Positions 12,849 to 58,920 of a stretch of 64,000 nt of DNA are shown one piece after another; the first letter of the stretch is position 1; every line of letters starts with the position of its first letter. Under the pieces are notes generated by a model. That model did no database searches, was not told the DNA's origin, and saw only the letters and a program-made list of their open reading frames with translations. Source of the stretch: an uncultured virus (IMG/VR IMGVR_UViG_3300027278_000424) (taxonomy: Duplodnaviria; Heunggongvirae; Uroviricota; Caudoviricetes); the IMG/VR virus record IMGVR_UViG_3300027278_000424. One strand, written 5' to 3'. The translations under genes were made by a program, and so were the position numbers.

Positions 12849-12851
12849 GAT

Positions 12852-13271: not shown

Positions 13272-13312
13272 AAAGATATTTCTTATATTTAAGTATACAA
13301 AAACAGTTATAG

Positions 13313-21729: not shown

Positions 21730-21782
21730 ATTAATTCCGCTCTAGGGTTTGATCTTTAAATAAATCTTCATATATTAATATA

Positions 21783-22278: not shown

Positions 22279-22280
22279 AT

Positions 22281-23927
22281 ATGAGTAAGAAAATTACATT
22301 TTCAAATGACGCTAGAAATAAACTAGCTGACGGAGTAGATAAATTAGCAAATGCAGTTACAGCAACATTAGGTCCATCAGGCCGTAATGTTATCATCGAA
22401 CAAGATATGGGTAATCCAGTATCTACGAAAGATGGTGTAACAGTAGCTAAATCTATTGTACTAAAAGATAAAGTAGAGAATTTAGGAGCACAGATTGTTA
22501 AACAAGCTTCTATTAAGACGGCAGAACAGGCAGGTGATGGTACAACAACATCTACCTTACTTGCACAAACTATTCTTAATGACGGTATTGATTCTTTAGA
22601 TGCAGGATCAAATGCAGTAGACGTTAAGAGAGGTATTGATAAAGCAGTAAAAGAAGTAGTTAAGTTTTTAGAAACTGATTACTCAAAAGAAATAACGGAT
22701 GAAGAACAGCTAAAACAAGTCGCTACAATTTCAGCCAACAACGATACAGAAGTTGGAGAATTGATCTCTACTGCTATGGATAAAGTAGGAAGAGATGGTG
22801 TTGTTACAATCGAAGAATCCAAAACAGGAGAAACATATCTCGAAACAGTCGAAGGTATGCAATTCAATCGCGGTTATAAGTCTCCATACTTCGTTACGGA
22901 TAACTCTACCATGACTGCTGTTCTTCAAAAACCGTTGATTTTAATTACCGACAAGAGGTTAAATGCAATCAAAGAGTTACTTCCAATCCTAGAAAGTGTC
23001 TCACAGCAGAACAGATCTTTATTAATAATTGCTGAAGACCTAGATGGAGAAGCTTTATCGACACTAGTAGTTAACAAAATGAGAGGAATCTTATCTGTAG
23101 CTGCAGTTAAAGCTCCTGACTTTGGAGATAGAAGAAAAGCAGTCCTAGAAGATATCGCAATCTTAACCGGGGGTCAAGTAATCTCATCAGAGAAAGGAAT
23201 GAGATTTGAGAAGTTTGACACTAATTGGTTAGGTTCAGCTAATAAAGTTACAGTAGGTAAAGATACTACTACCATCATTGACGCTAAAGGAGATGAAGAG
23301 AAGATTACCCAAAGAGTAGAAGAGATTAAAAATCAAATTGATGATACTAAATCTCCATACGAAAAAGAAAATCTTCAAGATAGATTAGCTAAATTCATCG
23401 GCGGTATTGCAATCGTTCACGTAGGAGGAATGACAGAAGTAGAGATGAAAGAGAAGAAAGATAGAGTTGACGATGCACTACATGCAACCAAAGCAGCTTT
23501 AGAAGAAGGAATCTTACCTGGAGGAGGAATTGCATTACTAAATGCAGCCACAATGCTAGAAAGTAGATTAGACTCAATTGAATCTAAAGATGAATACAAA
23601 GGATATCAAATTGTATTGAATGCATGCGAAGCTCCTTTCAGAAAAATCTTATTAAACGCAGGTTTTACTTCAGATAAGATAGGAGAAATTGATACAGAGT
23701 TACAAAACTCTAAAGATAAATGGTTAGGTTTTAACCCAAGAGCTGACAAAACAGTTAATATGTTTGAAGCAGGAATTATTGATCCAACCAAAGTTACAAG
23801 ATTAGCACTAGAAAATGCAGCATCGGTTGCTGGTACGATGTTGATTACAGAGGCAGTAGTCTCTAACTTACCAGAGAAAAACAAAAAAGAAAGTAATGGT
23901 ATGGATCCAAACATGCTATTAGGATAA
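22281..23927 (+). CDS. groEL: Chaperonin GroEL
   Basis: [51 protein letters not shown]. Confidence 0.97.
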
Positions 23928-34564: not shown

Positions 34565-36013
34565 ATGACTGACAAATTTGGTTATATCCCAAAAGACGAA
34601 AGAAAAAACGTCTTACTTTTATGTGATGATATTCGAATGCATTCCGGTATTGCTACTATGGCAAGAGAGTTTGTAGTTGGAACAGCACAACATTTTAATT
34701 GGTTTCAAGTAGGAGCAGCTTTACAGCATCCAGACGCAGGAAAGGTGTTTGACCTGTCAGAAGACATAAATAACCGTACCGGTATAAAGGATGCTTCTGT
34801 AAAAGTAATGCCTAATAACGGCTATGGAGATGCTACATTGATTAGAAGGTTACTTAAACAAGAAAAACCAGATGCTATCTTTATCTTTACGGATCCAAGA
34901 TACTGGACATGGCTGTTTGAAATCGAAAGAGAGATTAGATCTCAAATTCCAATTATGTGGTTAAACATCTGGGATGACTATCCTGCACCGATGTATAATA
35001 AAAGCTATTACGACTCAGTAGATGTCTTAATGGCAATCTCTAAACAAACTAAAAATATTAACGAATTAGTTTTAGGAGAAGAAGCTAAAAATAAACTCAT
35101 TAAGTATGTACCTCATGGTATTAACAGTAACGACTTCTTTCCTATCACAAAAGATCATAAATTATATCCAGACTTAGTTAAGTTTAAACAAGATACTATT
35201 CCAAATAAGGATGTAGAGTTTGTAGTTTACTTTAACTCAAGAAACATTAACAGAAAGAGACCAGGAGACGTAATTCTATCTTATAAATTCTTCTGTGACA
35301 GAATAGGAAAAGAAGCAGCTAAGAAATGTGCTTTAGTGATGCATACAGCAGCAGTAGATCAAAATGGAACTGATCTAAGAGCTGTAAAAGAAGCATTAAC
35401 AGATCCAGAATATGTTAACATTTATTTCTCTCAGGCTAAGATTAATACAGCCCAGATGAATATGATGTACAACATGGCTGATGTTACTATGTTAATCTCA
35501 TCTAATGAAGGATGGGGATTATCTTTGACAGAATCTATGATGGCAGGTACAATGATAGTTGGTGCTGTTACAGGAGGAATGCAAGATCAAATGAGATTCG
35601 AAGACGGTAATGGTAACTGGGTTGATTTTAGTTCTGACTTTCCTTCCAATCATAGAGGTACAATTAAACAATGCGGAGATTGGGTTGAACCAGTCTTCCC
35701 ATCAAACATCTCATTAACAGGTTCACCTTCTACTCCATATATTTTTGACGACAGAGTTTCATCAGAAGATGTAGCCATAGCTTTAGAGAAAGTATATAAC
35801 TTATCTACAGAAGAGAGAATCAAAAACGGACTGAAAGGTAGAGAATGGGTTACTTCAGACGAATCTCAAATGTCAGCCGATACAATGTGTAAGAACATTA
35901 TAGAGGTTATGGATGAAGGATTCAAAACATTTAAACCTAGACCAAGTTTTGAAATTCATAAAGCTGGTCCAAGACCATTAAAGAAAGTTACACATAAATT
36001 AACAGGTTATTAA
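34565..36013 (+). CDS. GT-B (GT4-like) glycosyltransferase
   Basis: SGIATMA, VPHGI, RNINRK, SSNEGWGLSLTESM. Confidence 0.88.
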   Translation: MTDKFGYIPKDERKNVLLLCDDIRMHSGIATMAREFVVGTAQHFNWFQVGAALQHPDAGKVFDLSEDINNRTGIKDASVKVMPNNGYGDATLIRRLLKQEKPDAIFIFTDPRYWTWLFEIEREIRSQIPIMWLNIWDDYPAPMYNKSYYDSVDVLMAISKQTKNINELVLGEEAKNKLIKYVPHGINSNDFFPITKDHKLYPDLVKFKQDTIPNKDVEFVVYFNSRNINRKRPGDVILSYKFFCDRIGKEAAKKCALVMHTAAVDQNGTDLRAVKEALTDPEYVNIYFSQAKINTAQMNMMYNMADVTMLISSNEGWGLSLTESMMAGTMIVGAVTGGMQDQMRFEDGNGNWVDFSSDFPSNHRGTIKQCGDWVEPVFPSNISLTGSPSTPYIFDDRVSSEDVAIALEKVYNLSTEERIKNGLKGREWVTSDESQMSADTMCKNIIEVMDEGFKTFKPRPSFEIHKAGPRPLKKVTHKLTGY

Positions 36014-36014
36014 G

Positions 36015-37274
36015 ATGAGTAAACCATTAGCAGTAGTAAGCTGCCCTATAGACACATATTCAGGATACGGAGCAAGAGCAAGAGACTTTGTAAAAGCTTT
36101 GATCGATTTAGATAAGTACGACGTAAAGGTTTTATCTCAAAGATGGGGTAACACTAGATTTGGTTATTTAGAAGATCATAATGAAGATGATTTAAGTTCT
36201 AGAATTATACCTAACATGACTGTTAAACCAGACTTATGGGTACAGATTACAGTACCGAATGAGTTTCAAAAAGTAGGTAAGTTTAACCTAGGAGTTACCG
36301 CTGGAATGGAAACTACATTAGTTCATAATACTTGGATTGAAGGATGTAATAGAATGGATCTAAACCTAGTATCATCAGAACATAGTAAAAAGACTTTTTT
36401 AGATACTGTGTATATTAAAGAGGATACTAAAACAAAACAACCTACTGGAGAATTAAGATTAACATCTCCTATGGAGGTTTTATTAGAAGGAGCTGATTTA
36501 ACTAAATACTTTCCGACTACAAGTTCATTAGACTTATCTCCTATAAAAGAATCATTTTGTTTCTTATTTGTAGGTCATTGGTTAAATGGTGACTTTGGTC
36601 AAGATAGAAAAAATGTAGGGTATATGATTAAATCTTTCTTAGAGACATTTAAGAATAAAAAAGATGCACCTGCTTTGATTCTAAAGACTAGTCAAGTTAC
36701 TACTTCTATTACGGATAGAGAAGCAGTATTAGATAAGATAGAACAAATTAGACAATCAGTTAAAGGTACCTTACCAAACATCTATCTCTTCCATGGAGAT
36801 GTAAGTGATTCGGAAATGAATGAACTTTACAATCATCCAAAAGTAAAAGCGATGATTTCGTTTACTAAAGGAGAAGGATTTGGAAGACCGTTATTGGAAT
36901 TCAGCCTTGTTAATAAACCTATCATAGCTTCAGGTTGGTCTGGACATGTAGACTTTTTAGATAAAGAATTTACAAACCTAGTAAGCGGGGAGTTAACACC
37001 AGTACATCCATCAGCAGCATCTAAGGATATGATACTTACCGAAGCTAAATGGTTTAGTGCAGATGAAGCAGCAGTAGGAAGAATTTTAAAAACAGTACAC
37101 AAAGACTACAAAAAGTTCTTATCTTTATCTAAGAGACAAGGACATAAAAGTAGAACAGAGTTTAGTTACGAAAAGATGGTAGAAGTATTAGGTAGAACAT
37201 TAGACCAATACGTTCCAGAATTTACTAAACAGATAGAATTAAATTTACCAAAATTAGATTTACCAAAATTATAG
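36015..37274 (+). CDS. GT-B (GT4-like) glycosyltransferase
   Basis: SGYGARAR, DRKNV, KGEGFGRPLLE. Confidence 0.85.
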   Translation: MSKPLAVVSCPIDTYSGYGARARDFVKALIDLDKYDVKVLSQRWGNTRFGYLEDHNEDDLSSRIIPNMTVKPDLWVQITVPNEFQKVGKFNLGVTAGMETTLVHNTWIEGCNRMDLNLVSSEHSKKTFLDTVYIKEDTKTKQPTGELRLTSPMEVLLEGADLTKYFPTTSSLDLSPIKESFCFLFVGHWLNGDFGQDRKNVGYMIKSFLETFKNKKDAPALILKTSQVTTSITDREAVLDKIEQIRQSVKGTLPNIYLFHGDVSDSEMNELYNHPKVKAMISFTKGEGFGRPLLEFSLVNKPIIASGWSGHVDFLDKEFTNLVSGELTPVHPSAASKDMILTEAKWFSADEAAVGRILKTVHKDYKKFLSLSKRQGHKSRTEFSYEKMVEVLGRTLDQYVPEFTKQIELNLPKLDLPKL

Positions 37275-37276
37275 TT

Positions 37277-37729
37277 ATGAAAGATCAATTAGTAGACTGT
37301 AAACGATGCGGAGGAAACGCATGTTACGAACAGCACATAGACGAATCAACAACTACCTGGTTATGTATGGGGTGCGGGTTTACAACCTCAACTCTAATGA
37401 ATGAAGGAGGAAAAGTAGTAGGGGACTTAATAGAAACTTCTCCAACTCTTTACAAAGATCTACTCTTCACAGACGATACTAAAAAAGTATGGGCTCCAGC
37501 AACAATGACATTACCAGAAAAAGGAATGGTATTCTTAGATGGTACATCAGAAAAGGAATGGAAATGGGCTGCAGTAAAAGCTATTAAGATTACAGAGGAG
37601 GAAAGAAAAGTAAAAAACTTCCCTAACGATCAGACATATAAAATGGATATGGCTGGCATTAAACATTACGGTCAAAGAGAGTTTATGGATGCTTTAGAGT
37701 TAATTGGTTTCTACGAAATAGGAGAGTAA
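37277..37729 (+). CDS. Hypothetical protein with N-terminal Zn-ribbon
   Basis: CKRCG...CMGCG. Confidence 0.7.
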   Translation: MKDQLVDCKRCGGNACYEQHIDESTTTWLCMGCGFTTSTLMNEGGKVVGDLIETSPTLYKDLLFTDDTKKVWAPATMTLPEKGMVFLDGTSEKEWKWAAVKAIKITEEERKVKNFPNDQTYKMDMAGIKHYGQREFMDALELIGFYEIGE

Positions 37730-38353
37730 ATGAAAATTAGTTACGCAATAACAGTATGTAATGAGTTTGTAGAAATACAAAAGCTTGTTAACTTTCTTAG
37801 AGAGAATAAAAGAACTCAAGATGAGATTGTTATACTCTTTGATCAGAAGAACGGTGACCAAGAAGTAGCCAACTGGTTAACTAAACAAAGTAAATACCCA
37901 AATGTTCAGTTCTGGAGAGGATTCTTTGATGGCCATTTCGCTGATTGGAAAAATAAATTGACAGAATACTGTGAAGGAGATTATATCTTTCAGATTGATG
38001 CCGATGAATTGCCTAATAAAATTCTCATTGATAACCTACCTAATATACTAGAGGCTAACCCTACAGTTGATATGTTAAGAGTTTCTAGAATTAATACTGT
38101 TGAAGGATTAACAGAAGAGCATATTAAGAAATGGGGATGGACGGTAAATGAAAAAGGTTGGGTTAACTGGGCAGACTGGCAAATGAGAATCTATAGAAGA
38201 CATCCTGATATTAAGTGGAAAAATAAAGTTCATGAAGTATTGGATGGATTTAAAATACACGGGATGTTACCAATGGAGGAAGAGTATGCTCTATACCATC
38301 CAAAAGATATAGAAAGACAAGAAAAACAAAACGCATACTACGATACATTATGA
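37730..38353 (+). CDS. GT2 glycosyltransferase
   Basis: ISYAITVCNE, IFQIDADE, W...VHE. Confidence 0.85.
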   Translation: MKISYAITVCNEFVEIQKLVNFLRENKRTQDEIVILFDQKNGDQEVANWLTKQSKYPNVQFWRGFFDGHFADWKNKLTEYCEGDYIFQIDADELPNKILIDNLPNILEANPTVDMLRVSRINTVEGLTEEHIKKWGWTVNEKGWVNWADWQMRIYRRHPDIKWKNKVHEVLDGFKIHGMLPMEEEYALYHPKDIERQEKQNAYYDTL

Positions 38354-38664
38354 AACCAAAAAGTAATATATACGTAGATATAGATGAAACTATCTGTGAT
38401 TATGAGTACAGAGAAGATAAGTTTAACTACAACTTAGCAAGACCTATACAAATTAATATAGATAAAATTAATAGACTCTATATTCAGGGACATTTAATTA
38501 CATACTGGACTGCTAGAGGTTCAAGAACTGGGGAAGACTGGTACGAAGTTACTAAAAATCAATTAGAGGAATGGGGATGTAAGTACCACTTCTTAAGTGT
38601 AGGAGAAAAACCTGCATATGATTTACTGATATGTGATAAATCTAGAAGGATAGAGGAGATATGA
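38350..38664 (+). CDS. Minimal HAD-family phosphatase
   Basis: VDIDETIC, WTARG, KP.YDLLICDK. Confidence 0.8.
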   Translation: MKPKSNIYVDIDETICDYEYREDKFNYNLARPIQINIDKINRLYIQGHLITYWTARGSRTGEDWYEVTKNQLEEWGCKYHFLSVGEKPAYDLLICDKSRRIEEI

Positions 38665-39512
38665 AAAAAACCTATATAATAGCTGAAATCGGAATTAACC
38701 ATCAGGGTGATATTAATATTGCAAAACGGTTAATAGATATTGCAGCAGCAGCTGGATGTGATGCAGTAAAGTTTCAAAAACGTAACCCCGATATAGCAGT
38801 CCCTGCAGCACAAAAAAATAAACCTCGTAGATGGCAAGGTCAAGATATGACCTATCTTGAATATAAGTATAAGGTTGAATTCGGTAAAGAAGAATACGAC
38901 GAAATCGATCGATACTGTAAGCAGCAAAACATTACTTGGTCAGCTTCACCATGGGATTATGATTCGGTTGAATTTTTAAAACAGTATGATTTACCGTTTA
39001 TAAAAGTACCTTCTGCTATGTTAACAAATCATAAACTGCTTACTTCATGTATGAAGAGTAGTATGAGAGTAATACTTTCAACAGGAATGTCCACTGAAGA
39101 AGAAATAGATGAAGCAGTTAATGTATTAAGAAAAGCTAAACATTTTTTTAGAAACCCTCATCCAATAGGATTACTACATTGTAATTCTTCCTACCCTGCT
39201 CCTGTAGAAGAACTTAACTTATCCGCTATAAAGACCTTAACCGAAAAATACCCTGATTGTGAAATAGGATACTCAGGACATGAGATATTACTAGGTACGA
39301 CAGTAGCGTCAGTACTACTAGGAGCGTCAATTGTAGAGAGACATGTTACACTAGATAGGAATATGGAGGGATCGGATCATGCATGCTCTGTTACTCCACA
39401 TGGTCTTTTTAAACTAGTTTCAGGAATAAGAGATTTAGAAAAAGCATATGGGGATGGACAAATCAAAGTAACTGAAACTGAAAAAGCTGTTAAAGAAAAA
39501 CTTAGAGGATGA
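38661..39512 (+). CDS. neuB: N-acetylneuraminate/nonulosonate synthase
   Basis: IAEIGINHQG, DAVKFQ, LSTGM, LHCNSSYP, GYSGHE, ERHVTLDR...SDH. Confidence 0.9.
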   Translation: MKKTYIIAEIGINHQGDINIAKRLIDIAAAAGCDAVKFQKRNPDIAVPAAQKNKPRRWQGQDMTYLEYKYKVEFGKEEYDEIDRYCKQQNITWSASPWDYDSVEFLKQYDLPFIKVPSAMLTNHKLLTSCMKSSMRVILSTGMSTEEEIDEAVNVLRKAKHFFRNPHPIGLLHCNSSYPAPVEELNLSAIKTLTEKYPDCEIGYSGHEILLGTTVASVLLGASIVERHVTLDRNMEGSDHACSVTPHGLFKLVSGIRDLEKAYGDGQIKVTETEKAVKEKLRG

Positions 39513-40192
39513 AAAACTTAAATGAAATAGCATTTGTAGTTCAGGCAAGACTTAATAGTAAAAGGGTACCTCAAAAGATGATTCGTCCATTTGCTGGTGA
39601 TACGTTATTTGGTATAGTATTAGACAAGCTATTGGACTGCAAAAATATACCTAACGAAAATATATTTGCTTCTATATACGAAGACGAGCTTATAGAGATT
39701 GTAGATAATAAACCAATCAGTTATTTTGTTAGAAGTAAAGAATCAGCCGAAGAAGAGGACAATTTACAATTAATATACGAATGGCATGATAAGCTTCCAG
39801 CTAAGTACAAGTACGTAGTTCTAATTTCTGGTTGTAATCCATTACTTCAAATAAATACGATTGATAGGTTTATAGAAAAGTTCGTAAACCAACAGGAAGA
39901 AAATCTATTTGCAGTCATAGAAAAAAGACAGTACTTCTGGAATAAACAAGGTAAGATGATTAATGATTGGCCGGTAGGTGAAACAATAATGAATACGAAA
40001 GTCATTGAACCTACATATGAAGCAGCACATTGTCTCTACGCTTCTAGATTAGATACTATAAAAAATAATAAATTTATGGTAGATTTTTCAAAAGAAAACC
40101 TTACCTTATATACTATACCAGAACTAGAGTCATTTGATATCGATTACGAATGGCAATTTAAAACAGCTGAACTGTTGTATGAAAAAATTTAA
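39509..40192 (+). CDS. neuA: CMP-nonulosonic acid synthetase (cytidylyltransferase)
   Basis: QARLNSKRVPQK, CNPL, FDIDYEWQF. Confidence 0.82.
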   Translation: MKNLNEIAFVVQARLNSKRVPQKMIRPFAGDTLFGIVLDKLLDCKNIPNENIFASIYEDELIEIVDNKPISYFVRSKESAEEEDNLQLIYEWHDKLPAKYKYVVLISGCNPLLQINTIDRFIEKFVNQQEENLFAVIEKRQYFWNKQGKMINDWPVGETIMNTKVIEPTYEAAHCLYASRLDTIKNNKFMVDFSKENLTLYTIPELESFDIDYEWQFKTAELLYEKI

Positions 40193-41006
40193 AGTAGGAG
40201 TATTAGGAAACGGATTCGTAGGAGAGAGTCAAGCATTTGCTTTCTCACCAACTACCGATTTAAGAATTTATGATGTAGATCCATTAAAAGCTACTCATAC
40301 AAAAGAACAAGTAGACGAATGTGATTTTATATTTGTTTGTGTTCCAACACCAATGTATAAAGATGGTTCACAAGATCTATCTTATATTGAAAAAGTATTT
40401 GAAGAGGCAGTAGAAGGGCCAATCTATATTATCAAATCTACAGTGCTACCCGGTACCACAAAAGAACTCTCTGAGAAATATAATAAGATTAATATAGTAT
40501 TTAGTCCTGAGTTTTTAACTGAGAGAACCGCTAAGTTAGATATGTTAACACAAGCAAGAATTATCTTTGGAGGACCAAGACAGCATACTAGAAAAGTAAG
40601 AGATTTGTTTGAGCAAAGATTCATGAATAGAAATATAATTGAAACAGACTCTACAACTGCTGAGTTAATCAAATATATGAACAATACTTTCTTTGCAACC
40701 AAAGTATCTATCATGAATGAATTCAAAAGACTTTCAGATGCAATAGGAACTGATTGGGAGACAGCTTTATATGGATTTGCTTCTGACGGAAGGATAGGAG
40801 ATAGCCACTTACATGTCCCTGGACCAGACGGTAGAATGGGATACGGAGGAACTTGTTTTCCTAAAGATGTTAACGCTATTATAAAATACGGAGAAAAATA
40901 TGGAACTCCTATGAATACTATAGCTGCAGGTTGGAAGACCAACCTAGAGGTTAGACCAGAAAAAGATTGGGAAAAAGATAAAGGTAGAGCAGTAAGCGAT
41001 GATTAA
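40180..41006 (+). CDS. UDP-glucose/GDP-mannose dehydrogenase, short form without the C-terminal domain
   Basis: GNGFVG, CVPTP, KSTV.PG, SPEFL, GYGGTCFPKD; likely start MKKFKV. Confidence 0.85.
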
Positions 41007-41685
41007 AAATAGTTTTAGGGAAGATATAGAGTTCATTTTTACTAAACTAAAAAATAAAGAGAAGTTTAGTTTTAGTAAATACGCTGATGGAGAGTTCGCA
41101 ATACTAGCTAACCAACGTATAACCAATATCGATAATTGGACTTTTGATCCAACAAAACATTCTGAGATTAGGAATGAATTAATAAGATCGTTCCAATTTA
41201 AAGATCCTGAATACTACGTAGGAGTTAGCTGTAAGTGCTGCCAACCTGAACAAATAGTAAACTGGATGAGACAAGAATCAAAACAAGATGTTCTTACTTG
41301 GGCTAACATATTTGTTAATAGTAACTACCCTTACTTCCAAGAGAATTTTATTCCGGAATTTAGTAACCATAAAGTAGTTTTATTTGCAAGAGAAGATGCT
41401 CGTACAAATGAATTACCATTTGAAGTAGAACATATACCTATAACTTCGGAAGCTTTTATAGATAATTTTGATATGGTAGAAAATTTTCCTATAGAAGAAT
41501 ATAAAGACAAGTTATTTTTATTCTGTGCTGGACCATTAGGTAACATGTTAGCAGCTAAATTTTGGGAAAAGAATAAAGAGAATACATATCTTGATATAGG
41601 TTCAACATTAAACGGATACTTAACTGAAACTAATAGAGGGTACCTTAAAGGAGGTAACACAGCACTAAAAACTTGTATATGGTAA
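40999..41685 (+). CDS. GT-D-fold-like protein
   Basis: FSFSKYADGE, CAGP, YLDIGS. Confidence 0.55.
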   Translation: MIKNSFREDIEFIFTKLKNKEKFSFSKYADGEFAILANQRITNIDNWTFDPTKHSEIRNELIRSFQFKDPEYYVGVSCKCCQPEQIVNWMRQESKQDVLTWANIFVNSNYPYFQENFIPEFSNHKVVLFAREDARTNELPFEVEHIPITSEAFIDNFDMVENFPIEEYKDKLFLFCAGPLGNMLAAKFWEKNKENTYLDIGSTLNGYLTETNRGYLKGGNTALKTCIW

Positions 41686-42659
41686 ATAAAGTCTTAATTT
41701 GTTTTGGAACAAGACCTGAATGGTTGAAAGTAAAACCTTTAGTTGAGACTTTAGATAACTGTCAACTACTCTTTACCGGTCAACATAAAGACTTACTTGC
41801 TGATATAAAAGTAGACTATAGAATAGAAATAGGAGATCAAACAAATAGACTTGATCAAATCATAAGTGACTGCTTACTTCAATTCCCAGAAGGAGACTTC
41901 GATACAGTCTTAGTTCACGGCGATACAGTTTCAGCTCTTGCTTGTGCTCTAGCAGCATTTAGTAGAAAGAAAAAAATCATTCACCTTGAAGCAGGTTTAA
42001 GATCTCATGATTTGACTCAACCTTACCCGGAAGAAGGGTACAGACAAATGATATCTAGAATAGCAGATATAAACTTTGCTCCAACTGAACTGTCAGCTGA
42101 GAATTTAAAACAAGAAAGAGTTTTAGGAACAACACACATTGTAGGTAATTCAGTTTTAGATAACTTACTGCCATTAAAAGATGAAGCAGTATATGGAGAC
42201 AAAGTTCTAGTCACCTTACATAGATGGGAGAATCATATTTGGATGGATAAATGGTTTAAAGAAGTAAACCAACTAGCGATTGATAACCCTACCTTAGAGT
42301 TTATCATTCCTCTACACCATCATCCCGAAGTACAAAAACATAGAGAATTACTAACACATGTTAATGTAGTTCCGTCTTTACCTCATACTGAACTTTTAGA
42401 TATAATGTTACAATCTAAACTCATCATATCAGATAGCGGAGGACTTCAGGAAGAAGGAACATTCTTTAATAAGAAAGTAATTGTATGTAGAGATGTAACT
42501 GAAAGACCAGAAGGTATAGAAACAGGACATTTACATTTATGTCATTACCCAGAACAGATATCTGATATCTTTTATAAGATTTTAAATAATTACGAAATAG
42601 ATACAAAATGTCCATACGGTGAAGGTAATACAGCCAAACTAGTTAAAGATTTACTATGA
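41673..42659 (+). CDS. wecB: UDP-N-acetylglucosamine 2-epimerase
   Basis: GTRPE, TGQH, HGDT, HLEAGLR, TLHR, DSGGLQEE, TERPEG. Confidence 0.9.
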   Translation: MYMVNKVLICFGTRPEWLKVKPLVETLDNCQLLFTGQHKDLLADIKVDYRIEIGDQTNRLDQIISDCLLQFPEGDFDTVLVHGDTVSALACALAAFSRKKKIIHLEAGLRSHDLTQPYPEEGYRQMISRIADINFAPTELSAENLKQERVLGTTHIVGNSVLDNLLPLKDEAVYGDKVLVTLHRWENHIWMDKWFKEVNQLAIDNPTLEFIIPLHHHPEVQKHRELLTHVNVVPSLPHTELLDIMLQSKLIISDSGGLQEEGTFFNKKVIVCRDVTERPEGIETGHLHLCHYPEQISDIFYKILNNYEIDTKCPYGEGNTAKLVKDLL

Positions 42660-43372
42660 TAACAGTTGTACTAAATAGCTACAAAAGAGCACAATACCTA
42701 CCTGAACAGATAAAAGCCATTAGGGAACAATCTATTCCTGTAGACGAAATAATGGTATGGTCAAACAAACCAGAAGAAGGGTTACAGTACAATATAGATA
42801 ATTTAGGAGTTAAGGTAGCTTATGCAAATCATAATTTCAAGTTTCATGGTAGATTTGCTTTTGGTTTATTAGCTAGAAGCGAGTATGTAGCTTTTTTTGA
42901 TGACGATACAATACCTGGACCTAAATGGTTTGAATCTTGTTTAAAATACTCAGAGGAAAATATTATACTAGGTTCAACAGGAGTTAAGTATTTAGGAGAT
43001 GCTTATGACCCGCATGAAAAGTATGGCTGGAATGGAATAAAAAGTAATAAACTAGAAGATGTTGACTTAGTTGGACATTCATGGTTTATGAAAAGATCTA
43101 CTTTAAAGTACTTATGGGAAGAAGATCCCATCTCTTGGGAGAACGGAGAAGATATTCAACTGTCTGGTTTTGCTTATAAATACGGAAACATAAGAACAGC
43201 AGTACCCCCTCACACTCTAGATAATAGAGAGGAATGGGGAAGTATAAAAGGAGACGTATACGGAAATGATGAAAATGCTTCTCATTGGAAAGGTAATCAT
43301 TCACCGTTACGTAATCAGATTTCTAAAACATTAATGGAACAAGGATACAAAAAAGTAATAGATAGAATATGA
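42656..43372 (+). CDS. GT2-like glycosyltransferase
   Basis: ITVVLNSYKR, FFDDD, GEDI. Confidence 0.8.
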   Translation: MITVVLNSYKRAQYLPEQIKAIREQSIPVDEIMVWSNKPEEGLQYNIDNLGVKVAYANHNFKFHGRFAFGLLARSEYVAFFDDDTIPGPKWFESCLKYSEENIILGSTGVKYLGDAYDPHEKYGWNGIKSNKLEDVDLVGHSWFMKRSTLKYLWEEDPISWENGEDIQLSGFAYKYGNIRTAVPPHTLDNREEWGSIKGDVYGNDENASHWKGNHSPLRNQISKTLMEQGYKKVIDRI

Positions 43373-44217
43373 AAGTACTAGTAACAGGCGGAGCTGGTTT
43401 TATCGGAACAAATATTGTTAATAAACTTCTTAAAGAGGGGCATGAAGTTATGTCTTTAGATAATTACGATAGTGGCCTTAAAGAGAATGAACTACCTGGA
43501 TGTATATACAAAGAAGGAGAGTTAGAGTTCTTAAAGTACTTTAATGGAAACGGATTTGATATAGTTTACCATCTAGCAGCTTTATCTAGAATACAGCCTT
43601 CATTTGAAAATCCATTAGAAACTTTCAGAGTAAATACCGAAGGAAGTTTAATTGTAGCTGATTGGGCTAAAAAGTACAACGTAAAGGTTGTTTATGCCGG
43701 TTCATCTTCAAGATGGCATGATCCATTACAATCACCTTACGCAGCTTTTAAACATATGGGAGAAGAAATCTTTAAAATGTATAGAAAGGTATACGGGTTA
43801 AATGTAGAAATAGCTAGATTCTATAATGTATATGGACCGAAAGAAATAGTAGATGGAGATTGGGCAGCAGTTATAGGAATATGGAGACGTCAAGTTAGAG
43901 ATGGAGAACGTATTACAATAGTAGGTGATGGAGAACAGAGAAGAGACTTTACTCATGTTCACGACATAGTAGACGCTTTATATAAAATTGGTATTGGAAA
44001 AGAATCACACGAAGATGCTTGGGAATTAGGAACAGGAGTCAACTACTCTATCAACGAAGTATTTGATATGTTTAAAAGTAGGTTTAATGTTGAAGCAGTA
44101 TACTTACCAGACCAGAAAGGAAACTATAGAAAGACTTTAAGAGAGAATGATGATAGTTTATTACGTTTAGGTTGGAAACCTGAAGATCAATTACTATCTT
44201 ATATAAACAGCTTATGA
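43369..44217 (+). CDS. NAD-dependent sugar epimerase/dehydratase
   Basis: TGGAGFIG, HLAA, YAAFK, RFYNVYGP, RDFTHV.D. Confidence 0.92.
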   Translation: MKVLVTGGAGFIGTNIVNKLLKEGHEVMSLDNYDSGLKENELPGCIYKEGELEFLKYFNGNGFDIVYHLAALSRIQPSFENPLETFRVNTEGSLIVADWAKKYNVKVVYAGSSSRWHDPLQSPYAAFKHMGEEIFKMYRKVYGLNVEIARFYNVYGPKEIVDGDWAAVIGIWRRQVRDGERITIVGDGEQRRDFTHVHDIVDALYKIGIGKESHEDAWELGTGVNYSINEVFDMFKSRFNVEAVYLPDQKGNYRKTLRENDDSLLRLGWKPEDQLLSYINSL

Positions 44218-44963
44218 AATTAGTAGTATATACAGCCCTATTTGCAGACGAATCTCTACCTTTAGAAGATGTAGGAAGGTTTTTTCCATTCACTCATGAC
44301 AAAGGAGGTGTAGAGTACATAGCGTTTACAAATAGAGAAGACCTAAAATCAGACTTTTGGGATGTAAGAGGTATAGAAAAAGAAGGGGATAAGTCATTTA
44401 GAATGATGTCTAGGTTCTTAAAATGGAACCCAACAAAAGCTAATCTTCCGGAACATACTCATTCATTATGGATGGACTCACAATGTTATTTCCAATACGA
44501 ACCTACAGCTATTGTTGATGGATACTTGAAAGACAAATACCATACAGCTATGCATCATCATACAGACCTACAAAGTATCTATGTAGAAGGAATGGTAACA
44601 TCGTATGTTTACTTTAATGACAAACCTTCTATTGTTAATAGACAATTAGAAAGATACTTCGAAGAAGGGCATCCTTATCAATATGATCATTACGAAACTG
44701 GAATACTTATTAGAAAGAACTGTAAGGAAGCTAATGAACTTGGAGAGACTGTTTATAATGAACTCTCCAACGGAAGTATTAGAGATCAACTATGTACACC
44801 ATATGTAGTTAAAAAGAGGAGAGACAAAGGAGATGAAGGTATACTAACAATACAAGAATCTTTCACAGGACATAGAGGACAGCTACCTCTACCTAAATCA
44901 AAAATATTTTTTACAGAACCAAAACCAAGCGAAAAGCTTAAAGAAGATTTAACAAAGAGATGA
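44214..44963 (+). CDS. DUF616-like glycosyltransferase
   Basis: VVYTAL, SLWMD, ETGILIR, RDQL. Confidence 0.7.
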   Translation: MKLVVYTALFADESLPLEDVGRFFPFTHDKGGVEYIAFTNREDLKSDFWDVRGIEKEGDKSFRMMSRFLKWNPTKANLPEHTHSLWMDSQCYFQYEPTAIVDGYLKDKYHTAMHHHTDLQSIYVEGMVTSYVYFNDKPSIVNRQLERYFEEGHPYQYDHYETGILIRKNCKEANELGETVYNELSNGSIRDQLCTPYVVKKRRDKGDEGILTIQESFTGHRGQLPLPKSKIFFTEPKPSEKLKEDLTKR

Positions 44964-52445: not shown

Positions 52446-52505
52446 TTGTTTATTTGAATTATTCTTCTTATATTAAGGTATAATTAAAAAATGATAATAA
52501 AGGTT

Positions 52506-53723
52506 ATGAAAAAAATTATTTTAAGTCTAAGCATTCTTTTTATAGTTAGCTGTACAAAAGATTCATTTACAGATACTGAACTTGAAAAAGTAATTGACAC
52601 AGTACCTATCGCAGATAACCCATTTAGTGTAACCTATACACCCGATTATACGAAACCTTCTTACTATACCAGATTGCCATTTCCAGAAAATGTAAAAAAT
52701 GGTACATATAGAGAGTTTAGCAATTGGCACCCTCCTCTAGAAGCTGTAGTTTTAGACTACGATAAAGATGGTTACTTAGACATTATAGACAATCAATCAG
52801 ACTACGGGGTATTTAGAAGAAACAGTATACTATTTCTAAAAGGTAATTCTTCTGGTAAGTTAGATATTGATAGGGAGAACTCATATAAACATACTGGTCT
52901 CATTCATGGGCGGAAAGGTCTTGTAGGTGATTACAATGGAGATGGATGGCCAGATGTATTTTTTATTGGACATGGATACGATGTAGTAGACGGAAATCCA
53001 AGAGATGAATACCCCATAATGCTCCTTAATAATCAGGGGAAAGATTTTGAATATAGAGCTTTTGAATCAGTAGTTGGTTTTTTTCATACGGGTGCTAGTG
53101 GAGATATAGATAACGATGGAGATTTAGATATACTAGTAATTGACGGTACTAAAGGAGTTAGTAATTCTTATATCTTTATCAACGACGGAAGTGGTAACTT
53201 TGAAAAGAAAACTTTAGATCAATATTCGTCTATACCTAATAATCTCTATGATTCATTTTTCCAAAAATGGACTGTGGAACTAAAAGATATAGACAACAAC
53301 GGGTACTTAGATATTATAATAGCTGGTGCACCGGATATGTATGATAGTACACCGCCTACTATAATGTTGAATTCTGCAAATGGATTTACCAGTAAAATTG
53401 AACTACCAAGAGAACCTGTATATAAATTAGTTGTAGATATAGACTTTTATGATTTTGATGGTGACGGGATAGATGAGTTAATACTAAACAGAACACCTTT
53501 AAATTATATATCTTATAAAGTTACTATTCATAGTTTAACTAGTGACGAGTACTTAACCACTACCTACTTCAATAACAGTGAGTATACAGGTCAGACTTCA
53601 GATAAATGGATGTATTGGATTTCTATCATTGAAAAAGATGGGGAACTATATTTAAAGGGAGACGATATGTATACTCCACATGAATGGATTTTTGAAGATG
53701 GAAAGTTTAAAAAAATAAAATAA
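52506..53723 (+). CDS. FG-GAP/VCBS repeat lipoprotein
   Basis: Lipobox IVSC; repeats DYDKDGYLD, DYNGDGWPD, DIDNDGDLD, DIDNNGYLD, DFDGDGIDE. Confidence 0.85.
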   Translation: MKKIILSLSILFIVSCTKDSFTDTELEKVIDTVPIADNPFSVTYTPDYTKPSYYTRLPFPENVKNGTYREFSNWHPPLEAVVLDYDKDGYLDIIDNQSDYGVFRRNSILFLKGNSSGKLDIDRENSYKHTGLIHGRKGLVGDYNGDGWPDVFFIGHGYDVVDGNPRDEYPIMLLNNQGKDFEYRAFESVVGFFHTGASGDIDNDGDLDILVIDGTKGVSNSYIFINDGSGNFEKKTLDQYSSIPNNLYDSFFQKWTVELKDIDNNGYLDIIIAGAPDMYDSTPPTIMLNSANGFTSKIELPREPVYKLVVDIDFYDFDGDGIDELILNRTPLNYISYKVTIHSLTSDEYLTTTYFNNSEYTGQTSDKWMYWISIIEKDGELYLKGDDMYTPHEWIFEDGKFKKIK

Positions 53724-54308: not shown

Positions 54309-56513
54309 ATGAAAGGAACCCTTTTTTCAACAGATTTTGTTAAAGACTCTAATGGAAACTTAAGATTGCTTGAAATCAATACAGATACTGCTATTGTTTC
54401 TTCTGCAATCAAACAATTAGACTTTACAGGATTTAAACAAGTATTAGAAAGTAATTCTATTACAAAAGTAAAGACAATCCATAAACTATATCAAGAAGAT
54501 ATCGTAGAAGCATTAAAAGCATACTTAGATGCAAATGTACCTTCAGTAAACTCTTTTGAAAGTATAGTTGAAGATAGCAACACTATTTATCCTACATCTG
54601 TAGAAGATGCAGCAGATACCTTTATCTTAAGGTTAGCTTATGATGAAGCTGCATTATTAGATAGTGAATATGCTAAAAACACACACAATATTCTAAAACT
54701 ATTCAGCGACAATGGGCAAATTAGTTCAACAGTTGGGTATTATTATGCTGGAGGCGGTAGTATAGAAGACCACCTTACAAGAGATTTTAATGCTGAAAAC
54801 GTTCCTGATATTTTAGTTAAAAACTTGAACACTACTTTAGGAGAGCCGATTGAGTTCTTTAAAATAGGTCAATCAAGTAAGACAGCTGAAGATAGATTTG
54901 CTGATGTATTCGATATGTTAGATGATACTAAAATTGCTATGAACTTCTACAACGATGAAGCAGCAGCAAAAGTAGAATCTTTTAGAACATTACACATAGT
55001 ATACGGAAGCGACCTAAACGTTATCGATGTAGCAGGATTTAAATCTTCAGCTATATTAGATAAACCAGCTTCTCTATCAGTAGTAGATGAAGATATAGTA
55101 ACGAAAGTAGATGTAAAGCACTACCATGAATTAACTACTACATTACCTAGATTTGGAGTAGGTTCTAACTACGGAGGTATCTTTGAAGAAGAGTTTATTG
55201 TAAAAGCAGACGGTACGTTAGTACCTATTAAAGACGCTACAGTAGGAGATTCCTTTAAATCATACTTTATTTCAGGTTCACCCGATACAGACATTGAATC
55301 AGAATATCTAGCATGGACTTACCCAGGATCTGAATTACCTAGTGGTTCTTACGCTACAACTTCTACTTTAGTAAACAACTTAGAAGTAGGTTTATTCTAT
55401 AATATGATCTTCCACGTAACTTTACAAGACGGAAGTGATTTTAGAGCAACAGGAAACTCTCACGTATTAGTTTACGATGTACAGGCAGACTTATTAAAGT
55501 ATGTTGCAGTAAACTATCTATCATCAGATAAACATAAATTAATATCTGCAGGAAATGGATTAGTAGATATTACAGGAGTTGTTTGTGAGATATTAGATGG
55601 GGAGTATTCTTCTCATATTCTAGATATGGAAATAGCCGATACATTCTTCATCGGTGATGGACAATTAAGCGTTAAGATTGTTGCCCACAACTGCTTCCCA
55701 GCTGGTACTAAAATTACAATGGCTGATGGTTCAGTCAAAAACATTGAAGACGTTAAGGCAGGAGATAAACTATTAACTATCAACGAAAATACTTTAGAAC
55801 AATCAGAAGGTAGAGTTGGAGATGTATTAGTTAAGAAAGATAGATTGTTATTCGAATTCAAATTAGAAGACGGAGGAGTAATCAAATCTACATCTCATCA
55901 CAGATATTTCGTAAAAGAAAAGTCATGGTTAACTGCTCAAGATATTCAAGTAGGAGACGTATTAGTTAGATCAAACGGAGATGATGTCAAAGTAGAATCA
56001 ATTGAACAGCACGAAGGTGAGTTTGAAGTATTCCATATTATTGATGTAAAAGATAACCATACTTACTACGCAGAAGATATTTTAGTTCATAACTATAAAG
56101 CTTGTTTCATCGCTGGAACAGAGATTACTTTAGCGAATGGAGATGTTAAAAATATCGAAGATGTAGCAGTAGGAGAAGAAGTTCTTACTTACAACGAAGA
56201 TAAAAAAGAAACAGAAGCAGGAGTAGTAGGAGACTTGAAGAAACATGAAGTTCAATCTGTAATCAGATTAACTCTTGATAATGAGAATGTAATCGTAACA
56301 ACTGAAGAACATCCTTTCTATGTAGTAGATGCAGGATGGGTAAAAGCAGGAGAATTACAACCATTAGATGTTTGTTTAAAAGAAGACGGTAAAGAATCTC
56401 TAATCTCTTCAGTAGAGGTATTAGAAGAGAAACATGAAGTATTTAACTTACTAAGCGTTTCTGAAAACCATAACTTCTTCGCTAACGGAATATTAGTTCA
56501 CAATAAAAAATAA
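54309..56513 (+). CDS. Protein with ATP-grasp-like N-terminus and three tandem Hint domains
   Basis: DF.KD..G.LRLLEIN; Hint units end VAHN (aa461), LVHN (aa595), LVHN (aa732); CFPAGT and CFIAGT block A motifs. Confidence 0.85.
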   Translation: MKGTLFSTDFVKDSNGNLRLLEINTDTAIVSSAIKQLDFTGFKQVLESNSITKVKTIHKLYQEDIVEALKAYLDANVPSVNSFESIVEDSNTIYPTSVEDAADTFILRLAYDEAALLDSEYAKNTHNILKLFSDNGQISSTVGYYYAGGGSIEDHLTRDFNAENVPDILVKNLNTTLGEPIEFFKIGQSSKTAEDRFADVFDMLDDTKIAMNFYNDEAAAKVESFRTLHIVYGSDLNVIDVAGFKSSAILDKPASLSVVDEDIVTKVDVKHYHELTTTLPRFGVGSNYGGIFEEEFIVKADGTLVPIKDATVGDSFKSYFISGSPDTDIESEYLAWTYPGSELPSGSYATTSTLVNNLEVGLFYNMIFHVTLQDGSDFRATGNSHVLVYDVQADLLKYVAVNYLSSDKHKLISAGNGLVDITGVVCEILDGEYSSHILDMEIADTFFIGDGQLSVKIVAHNCFPAGTKITMADGSVKNIEDVKAGDKLLTINENTLEQSEGRVGDVLVKKDRLLFEFKLEDGGVIKSTSHHRYFVKEKSWLTAQDIQVGDVLVRSNGDDVKVESIEQHEGEFEVFHIIDVKDNHTYYAEDILVHNYKACFIAGTEITLANGDVKNIEDVAVGEEVLTYNEDKKETEAGVVGDLKKHEVQSVIRLTLDNENVIVTTEEHPFYVVDAGWVKAGELQPLDVCLKEDGKESLISSVEVLEEKHEVFNLLSVSENHNFFANGILVHNKK

Positions 56514-56673: not shown

Positions 56674-57201
56674 ATGGTTACTGAAAAAACGTTATTCTCA
56701 CAACAAGATTGCGAATACATTAAATCATTTTATGATGTAGCAATTGAGAAGAACGAAAAAGGTTTCAAAATAAACTCAGACAAATACCCACAAGGTATAG
56801 CAATAAAAGACGGTTCAGCAGTATCATGGAATGAAATCCAAAACGATACTCTGGACCGTTTCTTGTTAAGTAAGCTTATAGAGTTAGAAATAACTTCACT
56901 CCCTTATCTTAAGCTAATGAAGTACGGAGTCGGAAATGAAATGAAACCTCATAGAGATTTTCAGGCATATGATACAAGTACAATCTATAGATCAACAACA
57001 ATACAGCTAACCAGTCCGGAAGATTATAAAGGAGGAGAGTTATATGTAGAAGGAGTAAAAGCTAGTAATATACAAGGAACTGCAATTATGTTTAACCCCT
57101 ATCAAACACATTGGGTTACAGAGATTACTGAAGGAGAAAGATGGGTTATAGTAGCTTTTTTAGAAGAGTTTCATTTTAATACTAAGAAAAGTTTATTATG
57201 A
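56674..57201 (+). CDS. 2OG-Fe(II) oxygenase (prolyl hydroxylase-like)
   Basis: HRD, YKGGEL, H.V.EI.EGER. Confidence 0.88.
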   Translation: MVTEKTLFSQQDCEYIKSFYDVAIEKNEKGFKINSDKYPQGIAIKDGSAVSWNEIQNDTLDRFLLSKLIELEITSLPYLKLMKYGVGNEMKPHRDFQAYDTSTIYRSTTIQLTSPEDYKGGELYVEGVKASNIQGTAIMFNPYQTHWVTEITEGERWVIVAFLEEFHFNTKKSLL

Positions 57202-57707
57202 TTGATCAAAAAGTATTATTTACAGCAGAAGAATGTGAGTGGTTGAAATCCGCACAATCAACTATATACCCACCAGTAGAAGATACTAAATGGTGGGAGT
57301 CACATCGTATAAATTATAGATTTAAAAATATACAAGAAAGAGAAGTATTTGAACAGTCACGTTTAGATTTTGTTGCTAGTAGAGTTAAACAATTAGGAGT
57401 GAAATCTGTTCCTACATATAAAATTATACATTACGGTAAAGGTGGATTCTTCGCCCCTCACATAGATTCAGGGAGAAACCATCCAATTAGAAGAAAAACA
57501 TTATTAGTGCAGCTATCCTCTAAAGAAGATTATTCTGGAGGTGATATGTATGTTAAGGGTGTACTTTTTGAAAAGACAATAGGCAATACAATATTATTTG
57601 ATTCGTCATTAACTCATGAACTAAAATTAATAGAAGGAGGAAATAGATTAGTTATGGTCACATGGTTATCTATTTATAACCTTGAGAATCCTAAAACTTT
57701 ACTATGA
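57198..57707 (+). CDS. 2OG-Fe(II) oxygenase
   Basis: HID, YSGGD, HEL..IEGGNR. Confidence 0.88.
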   Translation: MIDQKVLFTAEECEWLKSAQSTIYPPVEDTKWWESHRINYRFKNIQEREVFEQSRLDFVASRVKQLGVKSVPTYKIIHYGKGGFFAPHIDSGRNHPIRRKTLLVQLSSKEDYSGGDMYVKGVLFEKTIGNTILFDSSLTHELKLIEGGNRLVMVTWLSIYNLENPKTLL

Positions 57708-58228
57708 TAACAGTTAAACATAACGTACTGTCGGATAGAGAGGTAAACAAGCTACTCACTTTATGGTATGATACAAAACCTAACCATATTATAACAGACG
57801 GCTATAAGTATAATATTGAAGCAGTAGAGATTTTAGACTACATAGATAAATTAAAACTTTCGTATTCTTTTCCAAAAGAACACTATAGGGACTTTATACT
57901 ACAGACAATAGATGAAACACATAGCAAAGCTCCTAATCATGACAAATATCACCGACATGAAAATGAATGGACATATGTTATGTACTTAAATGATAACTAT
58001 CAAGGAGGAGAAATAGAGTTTACTAATGGAACTATCATTAAACCACAAGTAGGAGATGTTATATACTTTTCACCTGAAGAAGGACATAGAGTTAAACCCC
58101 CATATGATTTTACCGAACAGTATTTTAAACACAACGGTAAGAGTATTCTTATGAATAAAAGATGGTCACTTGTCGGATTCATGAATTCTGACATTATAAA
58201 CGAGAATAAAAAAACATGCTTAATTTAA
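57704..58228 (+). CDS. 2OG-Fe(II) oxygenase (HxH variant)
   Basis: HRH, YLNDNYQGGE, HRV...R. Confidence 0.8.
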   Translation: MITVKHNVLSDREVNKLLTLWYDTKPNHIITDGYKYNIEAVEILDYIDKLKLSYSFPKEHYRDFILQTIDETHSKAPNHDKYHRHENEWTYVMYLNDNYQGGEIEFTNGTIIKPQVGDVIYFSPEEGHRVKPPYDFTEQYFKHNGKSILMNKRWSLVGFMNSDIINENKKTCLI

Positions 58229-58920
58229 TTTATACCTATTCAATCAAACTTAGCGGTAACAGTATAGAAAAATACGTTAAACTCCTAAATAAAGCATACC
58301 TACATAACAGTAAGTACCATTCTATAGTACTATATACCGATAGGGAGACATTACCGTATGTAGAAGATATTTTTCCGGAGATAAGATTAGTAGAAATAGA
58401 CAATCTTCAATTTATGGATGATATAAAAATGAAGATTATAGATAAACTTGAAAGCAATAGTATACTTACAGATTACGATATCTTTTTAAACTCACCTTTA
58501 ATACTTCCAGACAATTTTGATGTGTATGTAGATAGAAGAGGTAAGGTAAAAGAGTTAGTACTGTACAGCCATTTGTTTGAACATTTAAGACATGAAGGTT
58601 ATGGTATTTTTACTAAAGATGTAAATACCTATTTGAATGTAGGTATATTAAAAATCAACAGTGAACATAAAATAAAAGCTATTAAAGACGCATATTACGC
58701 TTTAAGAAATTGGTATGTGGATAATAAAATAGAAGAAAGAACTCAATTTACATACCATACAGGAGTATGCCCTTCTATAGCAGCTTTACAGTACAATTTA
58801 GATAAAATAGCTACTATAAGTAACTGGAAAGTATGTGAGATGAAAAAATACAACAACTACCATCATTTAGTTGGAGAAGATAAATTTAAAGAAATAAGCA
58901 CAAAAAATACTGTGATTTAG
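58216..58920 (+). CDS. Putative nucleotide-diphospho-sugar transferase (DUF6734-like)
   Basis: LYTD, DYD (DxD), NVGIL, YHHLVG. Confidence 0.55.
   Translation: MLNLIYTYSIKLSGNSIEKYVKLLNKAYLHNSKYHSIVLYTDRETLPYVEDIFPEIRLVEIDNLQFMDDIKMKIIDKLESNSILTDYDIFLNSPLILPDNFDVYVDRRGKVKELVLYSHLFEHLRHEGYGIFTKDVNTYLNVGILKINSEHKIKAIKDAYYALRNWYVDNKIEERTQFTYHTGVCPSIAALQYNLDKIATISNWKVCEMKKYNNYHHLVGEDKFKEISTKNTVI

Follow-up and report, generated by a model that had tools for sequence, protein, structure and literature searches.

A virus-only gene family with a predicted ATP-grasp ligase-Hint core and further, possibly self-removing, Hint domains in its tail

Background

What kind of protein carries three Hint domains in a row, almost without residues between them, behind a domain that resembles an enzyme? 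This question is raised by a gene at positions 54309..56513 (plus strand) in a stretch of 64,000 nucleotides, referred to here as the window, from an uncultured member of the Caudoviricetes (IMG/VR record IMGVR_UViG_3300027278_000424). An original prediction made from the letters of the DNA described an ATP-grasp-like domain followed by three tandem Hint modules, and proposed an ordered autoproteolysis cascade that would release activated fragments, among them a YKA tripeptide, for ligation to other molecules.

The reading that we prefer, with a confidence only somewhat better than even, is that the gene encodes an ATP-grasp ligase-Hint-1 core with self-removing Hints inserted into its tail, and that it belongs together with a partner open reading frame (ORF) and with tagged neighbouring genes. 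On the predicted structures, the constant part of the protein is a core of ~460 residues, in which a minimal ATP-grasp amide ligase is fused to a half-disabled Hint (Hint-1). The two Hints that follow (Hint-2 and Hint-3) are intact. The reading frame is open and uninterrupted and encodes 734 amino acids, with the junctions ...KIVAHN/CFPAGT..., ...LVHN/YKA/CFIAGT... and ...LVHN/KK-stop just as they had been drawn originally.

The core defines a family of viral genes

Of 8000 candidates scored in a search with the core (residues 1-461), 530 proteins reached E <= 1e-3, and the best 120 of these, to which all figures for 120 homologues refer, cover residues 1-461 in full at 39-100% identity. When 1.84 billion cluster representatives were searched exhaustively, there were 260 clusters at E <= 1e-3, of which 100 also passed E <= 1e-30. 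Almost every full-length match aligns from its own residue 1, and the remainder look like fragments. Members appear in the source databases as 'intein/homing endonuclease' or 'hypothetical protein'.

Relatives are encoded in 101 of 128 candidate stretches of IMG/VR, on contigs of up to 326 kb. By comparison, 185,579 species genomes yielded one match, on a 2.8-kb contig of a metagenome-assembled genome, and a cellular origin was rejected on this count. Among cultured phages, tblastn returned Hint-level matches only (0/51 records cover at least 80% of the protein) and megablast returned nothing. No PHROG family matches the core, and a scan for related loci with the distant member P0238 as query found no relative. 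The family is virus-only in practice, and the gene is a real and conserved phage gene, neither unique nor an artefact.

A predicted ATP-grasp ligase at the N-terminus

The N-terminal domain (residues 1-289), modelled alone with AlphaFold, reaches a predicted local distance difference test score (pLDDT) of 95.6. Foldseek against the PDB gave 40 matches at E <= 1e-3, and those listed all belong to the branch of ATP-grasp enzymes that holds glutathione synthetase (GS) and glutathionylspermidine synthetase (GspS), including human GS (2hgs, 2.9e-6), YjfC (7uk6, 3.4e-6) and GspS (3o98, 6.7e-6), and further yeast GS, YgiC (7uk8) and trypanothione synthetase. In a VIA comparison with 48,161 representative chains, the top 11 were again all from the GS/GspS branch (Z 7.1-9.7; root-mean-square deviation (rmsd) 4-5 A), with alignments of 188-222 residues beginning at model residue 1, whereas the classical ATP-grasp proteins RimK, LysX/ArgX, TTLL, Ddl and PurK scored Z 4.5-6.3 and aligned only from model residue ~50. 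Because of this difference, the E-x-N hairpin appears to come first in the phage domain, as in the GS/GspS branch. The order of elements in this branch is a circular permutation of the classical ATP-grasp fold.

Conservation was counted over 295 distinct members, a sample that leans towards the relatives of the query. M1, D9, E22, N24 and T25 are kept in 295/295 and D118 in 100%, followed by R108 and R226 (99%), K171 (97%) and K185 (95%), and the N-terminal motif is the best-conserved stretch of the whole protein. We accept a predicted ATP-grasp fold of the GS/GspS branch for this domain, in keeping with the motif on which the original prediction had built. ATP-grasp activity is likely, because the candidate acidic, Lys and Arg positions for metal and ATP binding are 95-100% conserved.

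Hint-1 as a half-disabled part of the core

Hint-1 has no match in Pfam. Nevertheless, profiles made from the 120 homologues link it by hhalign to Hint-2 (probability 95.9%, E 6e-9, 125 columns) and to Hint-3 (76.5%, 2e-5), against 0.1% for the N-terminal domain versus Hint-2 as a control. In an AlphaFold model of residues 1-461, built from a 119-sequence alignment (pLDDT 93.2; predicted template modelling score 0.88), Hint-1 superposes in VIA on the bacterial intein-like (BIL) domain BIL2 of 6y75 with Z 19.1 and rmsd 1.6 A over 141 residues, and on 2lwy with Z 18.1. Judged by this model, it is a true Hint fold. Residue 1 of the RecA, Prp8 and other inteins is matched in this model by residue 290, so that Gly290 stands in the position of Cys1. 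Compared with Hint-2, Hint-1 has 38 more residues, chiefly owing to one insert around residues 321-350.

Position 290 is Gly in 267/295 members, with His, Ala and Ile next in frequency and Cys not among the four commonest residues, and the block-B histidine position H385 is kept in 120/295. At the C-terminal side, by contrast, E441 is found in 285/295, D444 in 289/295, H460 in 288/295 and N461 in 295/295. From these residues, Hint-1 appears to be no longer equipped for the N-terminal acyl shift, while it keeps what inteins use for Asn cyclisation. With Gly290 and an unconserved H385, but with the block-F Glu/Asp and the terminal His-Asn kept, it could cut at most at its own C-terminus. We also considered Hint-1 as a class-2-like intein spliced via Cys462, and rejected this on account of the members without canonical Hints, which have no nucleophile at the +1 position behind Hint-1 (A, K, P, I, Y or N).

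Two intact Hints at the end of the protein

Pfam recognises Hint-2 and Hint-3 as two stretches (PT-HINT 4.5e-29, Intein_splicing 6e-21, Hint 5.2e-13), and these are also the only two PT-HINT matches in the whole record. The Pfam scan of the protein found no endonuclease family, as had been supposed. The best sequence matches in the PDB are 2lwy, a BIL domain of Clostridium thermocellum (1e-14, residues 462-595), and BIL2 of Tetrahymena (6tmm/6y75; 2.4e-11, residues 598-732). Both Hints have 134 residues and they are 40% identical to each other by hhalign.

The catalytic set comprises C462, T528/H531 and H594-N595 in Hint-2, and C599, H668 and H731-N732 in Hint-3. Among the 120 homologues, C462 is kept in 119, H594 in 115 and N595 in 118, and T528 and H531 are invariant in 28 diverse members; for Hint-3 the corresponding counts are 116 for C599, 113 for N732 and 99 for K733. 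Canonical class-1 inteins have Cys, Ser or Thr at +1. Here the +1 residues are Tyr596 and Lys733 (F/Y/K/W/S behind Hint-2 and K/D/E behind Hint-3 across the 120 homologues), and the class-1 route is closed because of this, a point on which the original prediction was right. Moreover, canonical inteins sit at conserved sites of their hosts, often with a homing endonuclease, while the Hints of this family lie in a variable tail.

Variable Hint number in a short tail

Canonical Hints behind the core were counted with a hidden Markov model (HMM) built from the family. There are none in 34 of the 295 members, one in 70, two in 185 and three in 6, and the state with three Hint modules in all, which the original prediction took to define the protein, is therefore one of several. 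Closely related cores may differ in this respect: two cores of 67% identity carry none and one Hint, and two of 68% identity carry two and three. A pair with 99% identity was disregarded, as one of the proteins looks truncated.

Between the first and the second canonical Hint, members of the family have spacers of 1 to 37 residues, for instance K, KK, R, RF, WK, YKA, FKYGS, FKYGGGGGGS, KPPPPTLA and a Cys-rich 37-mer. Because the spacer varies so much in length and in sequence, YKA is a linker and not a conserved product, and the tripeptide cannot be upheld as a defined product of the protein. If the flanks are read jointly, they give a short tail, typically of 4-13 residues, with a terminal Lys in 182/275 members and a Lys within the last two residues in 219/275. 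Such tails are similar to those of relatives without a canonical Hint. The Hint-less member P0145, for example, has the tail PAPPPKL, and the one-Hint L056, whose core is 67% identical, has AP and RGIPKL around its Hint. Similarly, the Cys-rich 37-mer between the two Hints of P0201 resembles the Cys-rich tails of ~30-130 residues behind His-Asn in distant Hint-less members (P0235, P0237-P0245, P0249, P0251, P0252 and P0260-P0262).

A tree of 458 Hints contains a clade of 133 (support 0.999), of which 130 are first-slot Hints of two-Hint proteins, and the last-slot Hints form at least four clades common to one-, two- and three-Hint proteins. From these patterns we read the tail as having two insertion slots, one behind the Asn of the core and one before the terminal Lys, in which BIL-type Hints would have been gained, lost or replaced.

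Another type of self-cleaving module was seen in the same place in two distant members. In P0205 and P0233, ~70 C-terminal residues behind His-Asn resemble the ends of tail-fibre or virion proteins (Pfam Peptidase_S74, E 0.0035; phrog_6121, 1.4e-8).

A small partner ORF and neighbours with a common end tag

The gene is followed by a 46-residue ORF (Table 1). A homologue of 43-53 residues lies at most 32 nucleotides (nt) downstream of the family gene in 54 of 56 distinct viral loci, and in the other two it was found slightly further on by HMM, so that all 56 loci have it. In 54 sequences of this partner, Tyr5 is invariant and Lys6 occurs in at least 90%; both ends are conserved, the middle is variable and the last residue is not fixed. 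No PHROG family matches it.

The neighbouring genes share an end tag, K(-4) [KSNT](-3) [LI](-2) [IL](-1). Two hydrophobic terminal residues are found in 46/52 first downstream ORFs versus 5/53 control ORFs of the window, and the share of tagged ends drops with distance on both sides of the family gene. In the present record, the tag is carried by 4/4 ORFs directly downstream versus 9/112 other ORFs, the family gene excluded; the ends of these four fit K/T-x-[LV]-[LI]. A random subset of 80 of the 308 tagged neighbours was scanned with Pfam, giving 26 2-oxoglutarate (2OG) oxygenases, 8 radical SAM proteins, 5 SET-domain proteins, 4 DUF6734, 3 GDSL-like, 2 DUF932, 1 sulfotransferase, 1 dCMP deaminase and 30 without match.

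Could the tag simply result from ATGA stop/start overlaps? We rejected this idea. Such overlaps do show the highest share of tagged ends (99/131), but the tag is also present in 38/77 cases with gaps of 11-40 nt; it is coded by many synonymous codons and all three stop codons, and by eye it occurs in 0/7 window genes with 4-nt overlaps away from the array.

Some arrays are longer or begin differently. Up to 12 consecutive tagged genes are seen in related loci (e.g. L041 and L050), and in L022, L034, L057, L073 and L081 the first tagged gene encodes a small SET-domain protein (7.4e-11 to 1.2e-4), not a 2OG oxygenase. In the present record two further tagged genes, ending in ...PKSIL and ...DSTLI, lie ~9 kb on, outside the window (G000:C1:66614-67662).

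Table 1. The family gene, its parts and the genes directly downstream, in positions of the window
Feature	Position (strand)	Description
Whole gene	54309..56513 (+)	734 aa: ATP-grasp + Hint-1 + Hint-2 + YKA + Hint-3 + KK + stop
N-domain, aa 1-289	54309..55175 (+)	Minimal ATP-grasp fold of glutathione synthetase / GspS / YgiC type (predicted model)
E22-I-N24	54372..54380 (+)	E-x-N motif in N-terminal position; 295/295 members
Hint-1, aa 290-461	55176..55691 (+)	Predicted Hint fold; position 1 is Gly, block B degenerate, block-F acids and terminal His-Asn kept
Hint-2, aa 462-595	55692..56093 (+)	Intact BIL/PT-HINT-type mini-Hint (Cys1, T-x-x-H, His-Asn), directly after Asn461
YKA spacer, aa 596-598	56094..56102 (+)	Variable linker
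Hint-3, aa 599-732	56103..56504 (+)	Intact BIL/PT-HINT-type mini-Hint, just before the terminal lysines
KK	56505..56510 (+)	End of the family's short Lys-ending tail
Partner ORF, 46 aa	56519..56659 (+)	Starts 5 nt after the stop of the family gene
2OG-Fe(II) oxygenase-like	56674..57201 (+)	Ends ...KKSLL; Pfam 2OG-FeII_Oxy_3 1.2e-9
2OG-Fe(II) oxygenase-like	57198..57707 (+)	Ends ...PKTLL; Pfam 1.2e-9
2OG-Fe(II) oxygenase-like	57704..58228 (+)	Ends ...KKTCLI; Pfam 2.4e-8
Gene without Pfam match	58216..58920 (+)	Ends ...TKNTVI

Proposed working of the protein and its alternatives

If the tail Hints are self-removing inserts, Hint-2 and Hint-3 would each form a thioester at Cys1 (Cys462 and Cys599) after translation and cyclise their terminal Asn (Asn595 and Asn732), thereby removing themselves, and the flanks would then be joined via a freed or a lysine amine as in BIL domains, or would merely be cut. 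Hint-1 would only cyclise Asn461 and so cut at its own end. The mature product may accordingly be the core followed by YKA and KK, or the core ending at Asn461. A +1 position without nucleophile does not by itself exclude a joining of the flanks, because the Tetrahymena BIL2, which has no +1 nucleophile, uses a lysine amine to join its flanks (PMC8616854).

The core probably works with the 46-residue partner, and on or with the neighbours that end in K-x-[LI]-[IL]. That the ligase acts on these C-terminal tags is an attractive guess, because the enzymes nearest in structure to the N-terminal domain link amines to the C-terminal carboxylates of peptides; YgiC and YjfC are called 'peptidylpolyamine synthetases' in PMC12568646. 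A bolder idea, which we regard as a long shot, makes the gene the hub of a virus-only protein-modification module: a GspS-type ligase on a half-Hint scaffold, paired with the micro-protein, would read the K-x-[LI]-[IL] ends common to an array of phage enzymes (2OG oxygenases, radical SAM, SET) and amidate, cap or tether their carboxylates, with the tail Hints as timer or activator. If true, the module would give phages a novel means of marking and organising the enzymes that they encode.

Several points weigh against a ligase core with self-removing Hints in its tail. We infer every chemical step from conserved residues and from relatives. A cut at Asn461 would lose the tail and leave weak selection for clean splicing, yet Hint-2 and Hint-3 keep their catalytic residues strongly, as would also be expected of domains with a function in their own right. 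Having no endonuclease, these Hints also have no evident route of spread, and the first-slot lineage looks vertically inherited. According to a review (PMC7765530), A-type BIL domains cleave at the C-terminus and cannot ligate their flanks; the title of an article by Dassa et al. (2004) in its reference list names splicing as well as auto-cleavage. As to the ligase itself, Pfam has no family for residues 1-289 and gives sub-cut-off matches to GSP_synth in 5/72 members (best E 0.054), a PDB profile search has only Hints among the best 60 of its 78 matches, and ESM Atlas offers only sub-threshold leads to ATP-grasp families (scores 0.80-0.82). The ATP-grasp assignment thus consists of a predicted fold at moderate scores together with a motif.

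Since the intact Hints may be so well conserved because they have a use of their own, we keep as a rival the conjugation idea of the original prediction, recast in the manner of BUBL, unlikely as it seems to us. Hint-2 would make a thioester at Asn461-Cys462, and the core or fragments between the Hints would pass to an outside amine, such as a lysine on a protein of the phage or the host; the Hints would be ATP-free ligation modules and not removable inserts. The closest solved relatives include BIL2, which passes its N-terminal flank to lysines of several substrates (PMC8616854), both intact Hints are catalytically near-invariant though almost nothing lies between them, and most Hints have a Lys or Arg at the first or second position after them. 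However, the 34 members with no canonical Hint and the 70 with one make the Hints dispensable for the function of the family, and the spacers differ in length and in sequence.

The adjacent small ORF also suggests a pathway like that of ribosomally synthesised and post-translationally modified peptides (RiPPs), which we consider doubtful. Its substrate would be the 46-residue ORF, or the tail behind Asn461 freed by Asn cyclisation in Hint-1, and both the ligase and the tagged enzymes (2OG oxygenases, radical SAM and SET proteins) would modify it. The small ORF is always adjacent, such enzymes make up 26, 8 and 5 of the 80 neighbours scanned, and behind His-Asn the distant members extend into Cys-rich tails of 30-130 residues. 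Yet the tail is merely K or AK in many members, the small protein is conserved at its ends and not in its middle, with a last residue that is not fixed, and neither a RiPP recognition element nor a protease was found. Moreover, the fold neighbours of the N-terminal domain are small-molecule or peptide-polyamine ligases, and the RiPP ATP-grasp 7mgv reaches only Z 5.1. Finally, it is very improbable that the Hints are inactive structural repeats or that the tandem arose in assembly. The same 734-residue gene is found, identical, on three IMG/VR contigs and its stretch is present in many marine metagenome runs, two Hints are the state of 185/295 members, and Cys1, the block-B Thr/His and the terminal His-Asn are near-invariant; a duplicated assembly is excluded because Hint-2 and Hint-3 are only 40% identical, as the original prediction had anticipated from their divergence.

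Environmental presence and genomic context

The source record is a linear virus of 94.8 kb with an estimated completeness of 58%. RNA-library contigs from two studies match parts of the gene at >=99%, and one of them spans Hint-3 through the small ORF. These contigs establish presence in RNA libraries; DNA carry-over is possible and transcription is unproven. In the contigs of four runs, neither a Hint-less allele nor a clean joint was seen. A 1437-base skip in one DNA contig was considered as such an allele and is not credible, as one side has 30 letters at 85% likeness.

Phage genes elsewhere in the window include those for a DNA polymerase, endolysins and GroEL as well as a 7-deazaguanine set. 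The last (5879-14020) consists of QueC-like, QueD-like, QueE-like and GTP cyclohydrolase genes of queuosine type; it adjoins carbamoyltransferase and phosphoribosyltransferase genes, which suggests modified DNA bases. A phage Hsp20 (4.6e-19) and a GroEL-like chaperonin (8.2e-165) are encoded at 21316-23927, and an extended run of glycosyltransferase, UDP-glucose dehydrogenase and nucleotide-sugar epimerase genes at 34565-44963. Two genes upstream of the family gene lies a 410-residue FG-GAP/VCBS-repeat protein with a lipoprotein-like N terminus (52491-53723; FG-GAP_3 9.6e-22).

Novelty and significance

A full-text literature search, with most subscription journals outside its coverage, found no description of an ATP-grasp-Hint fusion or of such tandem Hints; the one phage paper in it that names glutathionylspermidine synthetase concerns ordinary gss genes (PMC9992855). 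The parts are of known kinds, namely Hints of BIL/PT-HINT type and an ATP-grasp of GS/GspS type. As far as searched, no description exists of their fusion, of the half-Hint core, of the micro-protein partner or of the array of tagged enzymes.

Hint domains are tools of protein engineering, and tandem, nearly extein-free BIL-type Hints working beside Tyr and Lys would widen the range of tolerated junctions. The core, a common ATP-grasp-Hint fusion without Pfam or PHROG match, together with a fixed micro-protein and tagged enzymes, points to an unstudied module in abundant marine and freshwater phages. Identification of its substrate could explain the long arrays of 2OG oxygenases and radical SAM proteins in such phages.

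Comparison with known systems

Among the known Hint systems, class 2 and class 3 inteins without Cys1 (KlbA, 2jmz; DnaB, 6bs8) share with Hint-1 the lack of a position-1 nucleophile and the terminal His-Asn, and here also a +1 Cys; both are fold matches. They differ in that Hint-1 is a constant part of the protein and not an insert, its block-B His is unconserved, and the +1 residue is a non-nucleophile in Hint-less members.

The A-type BIL or PT-HINT domains (2lwy) provide the best match in sequence, for Hint-2, and in Pfam. They have the same Cys1, T-x-x-H and terminal His-Asn, the same lack of a +1 Cys/Ser/Thr and of an endonuclease, and the same siting in a variable region, in non-conserved proteins as described in PMC7765530. 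However, A-type BIL domains occur in secreted bacterial or toxin proteins, while the Hints of this family are found in a phage enzyme, a host beyond the described range; two stand in tandem with 3 and 2 flanking residues and no cargo domain downstream.

BIL2 from the BUBL1 locus of Tetrahymena thermophila (6y75, 6tmm) is the best sequence match of Hint-3 and the best fold match of Hint-1. Its joining through a lysine amine (PMC8616854) has a possible counterpart in the lysine that follows Hint-3. BIL2 is flanked by ubiquitin-like cargo domains, though, and the phage Hints by a ligase-Hint core and by one or two lysines.

For the predicted ligase, eukaryotic GS (2hgs, 1m0t) and the GS-like effectors of nematodes (5oeu, 5oet) are top fold matches, with 5oeu reaching Z 9.7 over 218 residues, and their elements come in the same order. 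The phage domain differs from them at 8-13% identity and without their first 110-160 residues, the alignments starting at chain residues 113-160. YgiC/YjfC and the synthetase domain of GspS (7uk6, 7uk8, 7uka, 3o98, 2io7) match by Foldseek at 3.4e-6 to 1.3e-5 and by VIA at Z 9.1 and 8.4, and align from model residue 1 with the E-x-N hairpin first in both. Identity to these enzymes is ~10-12% with no match at profile level, and the phage domain, at ~280 residues, is shorter than they are and is fused to a Hint.

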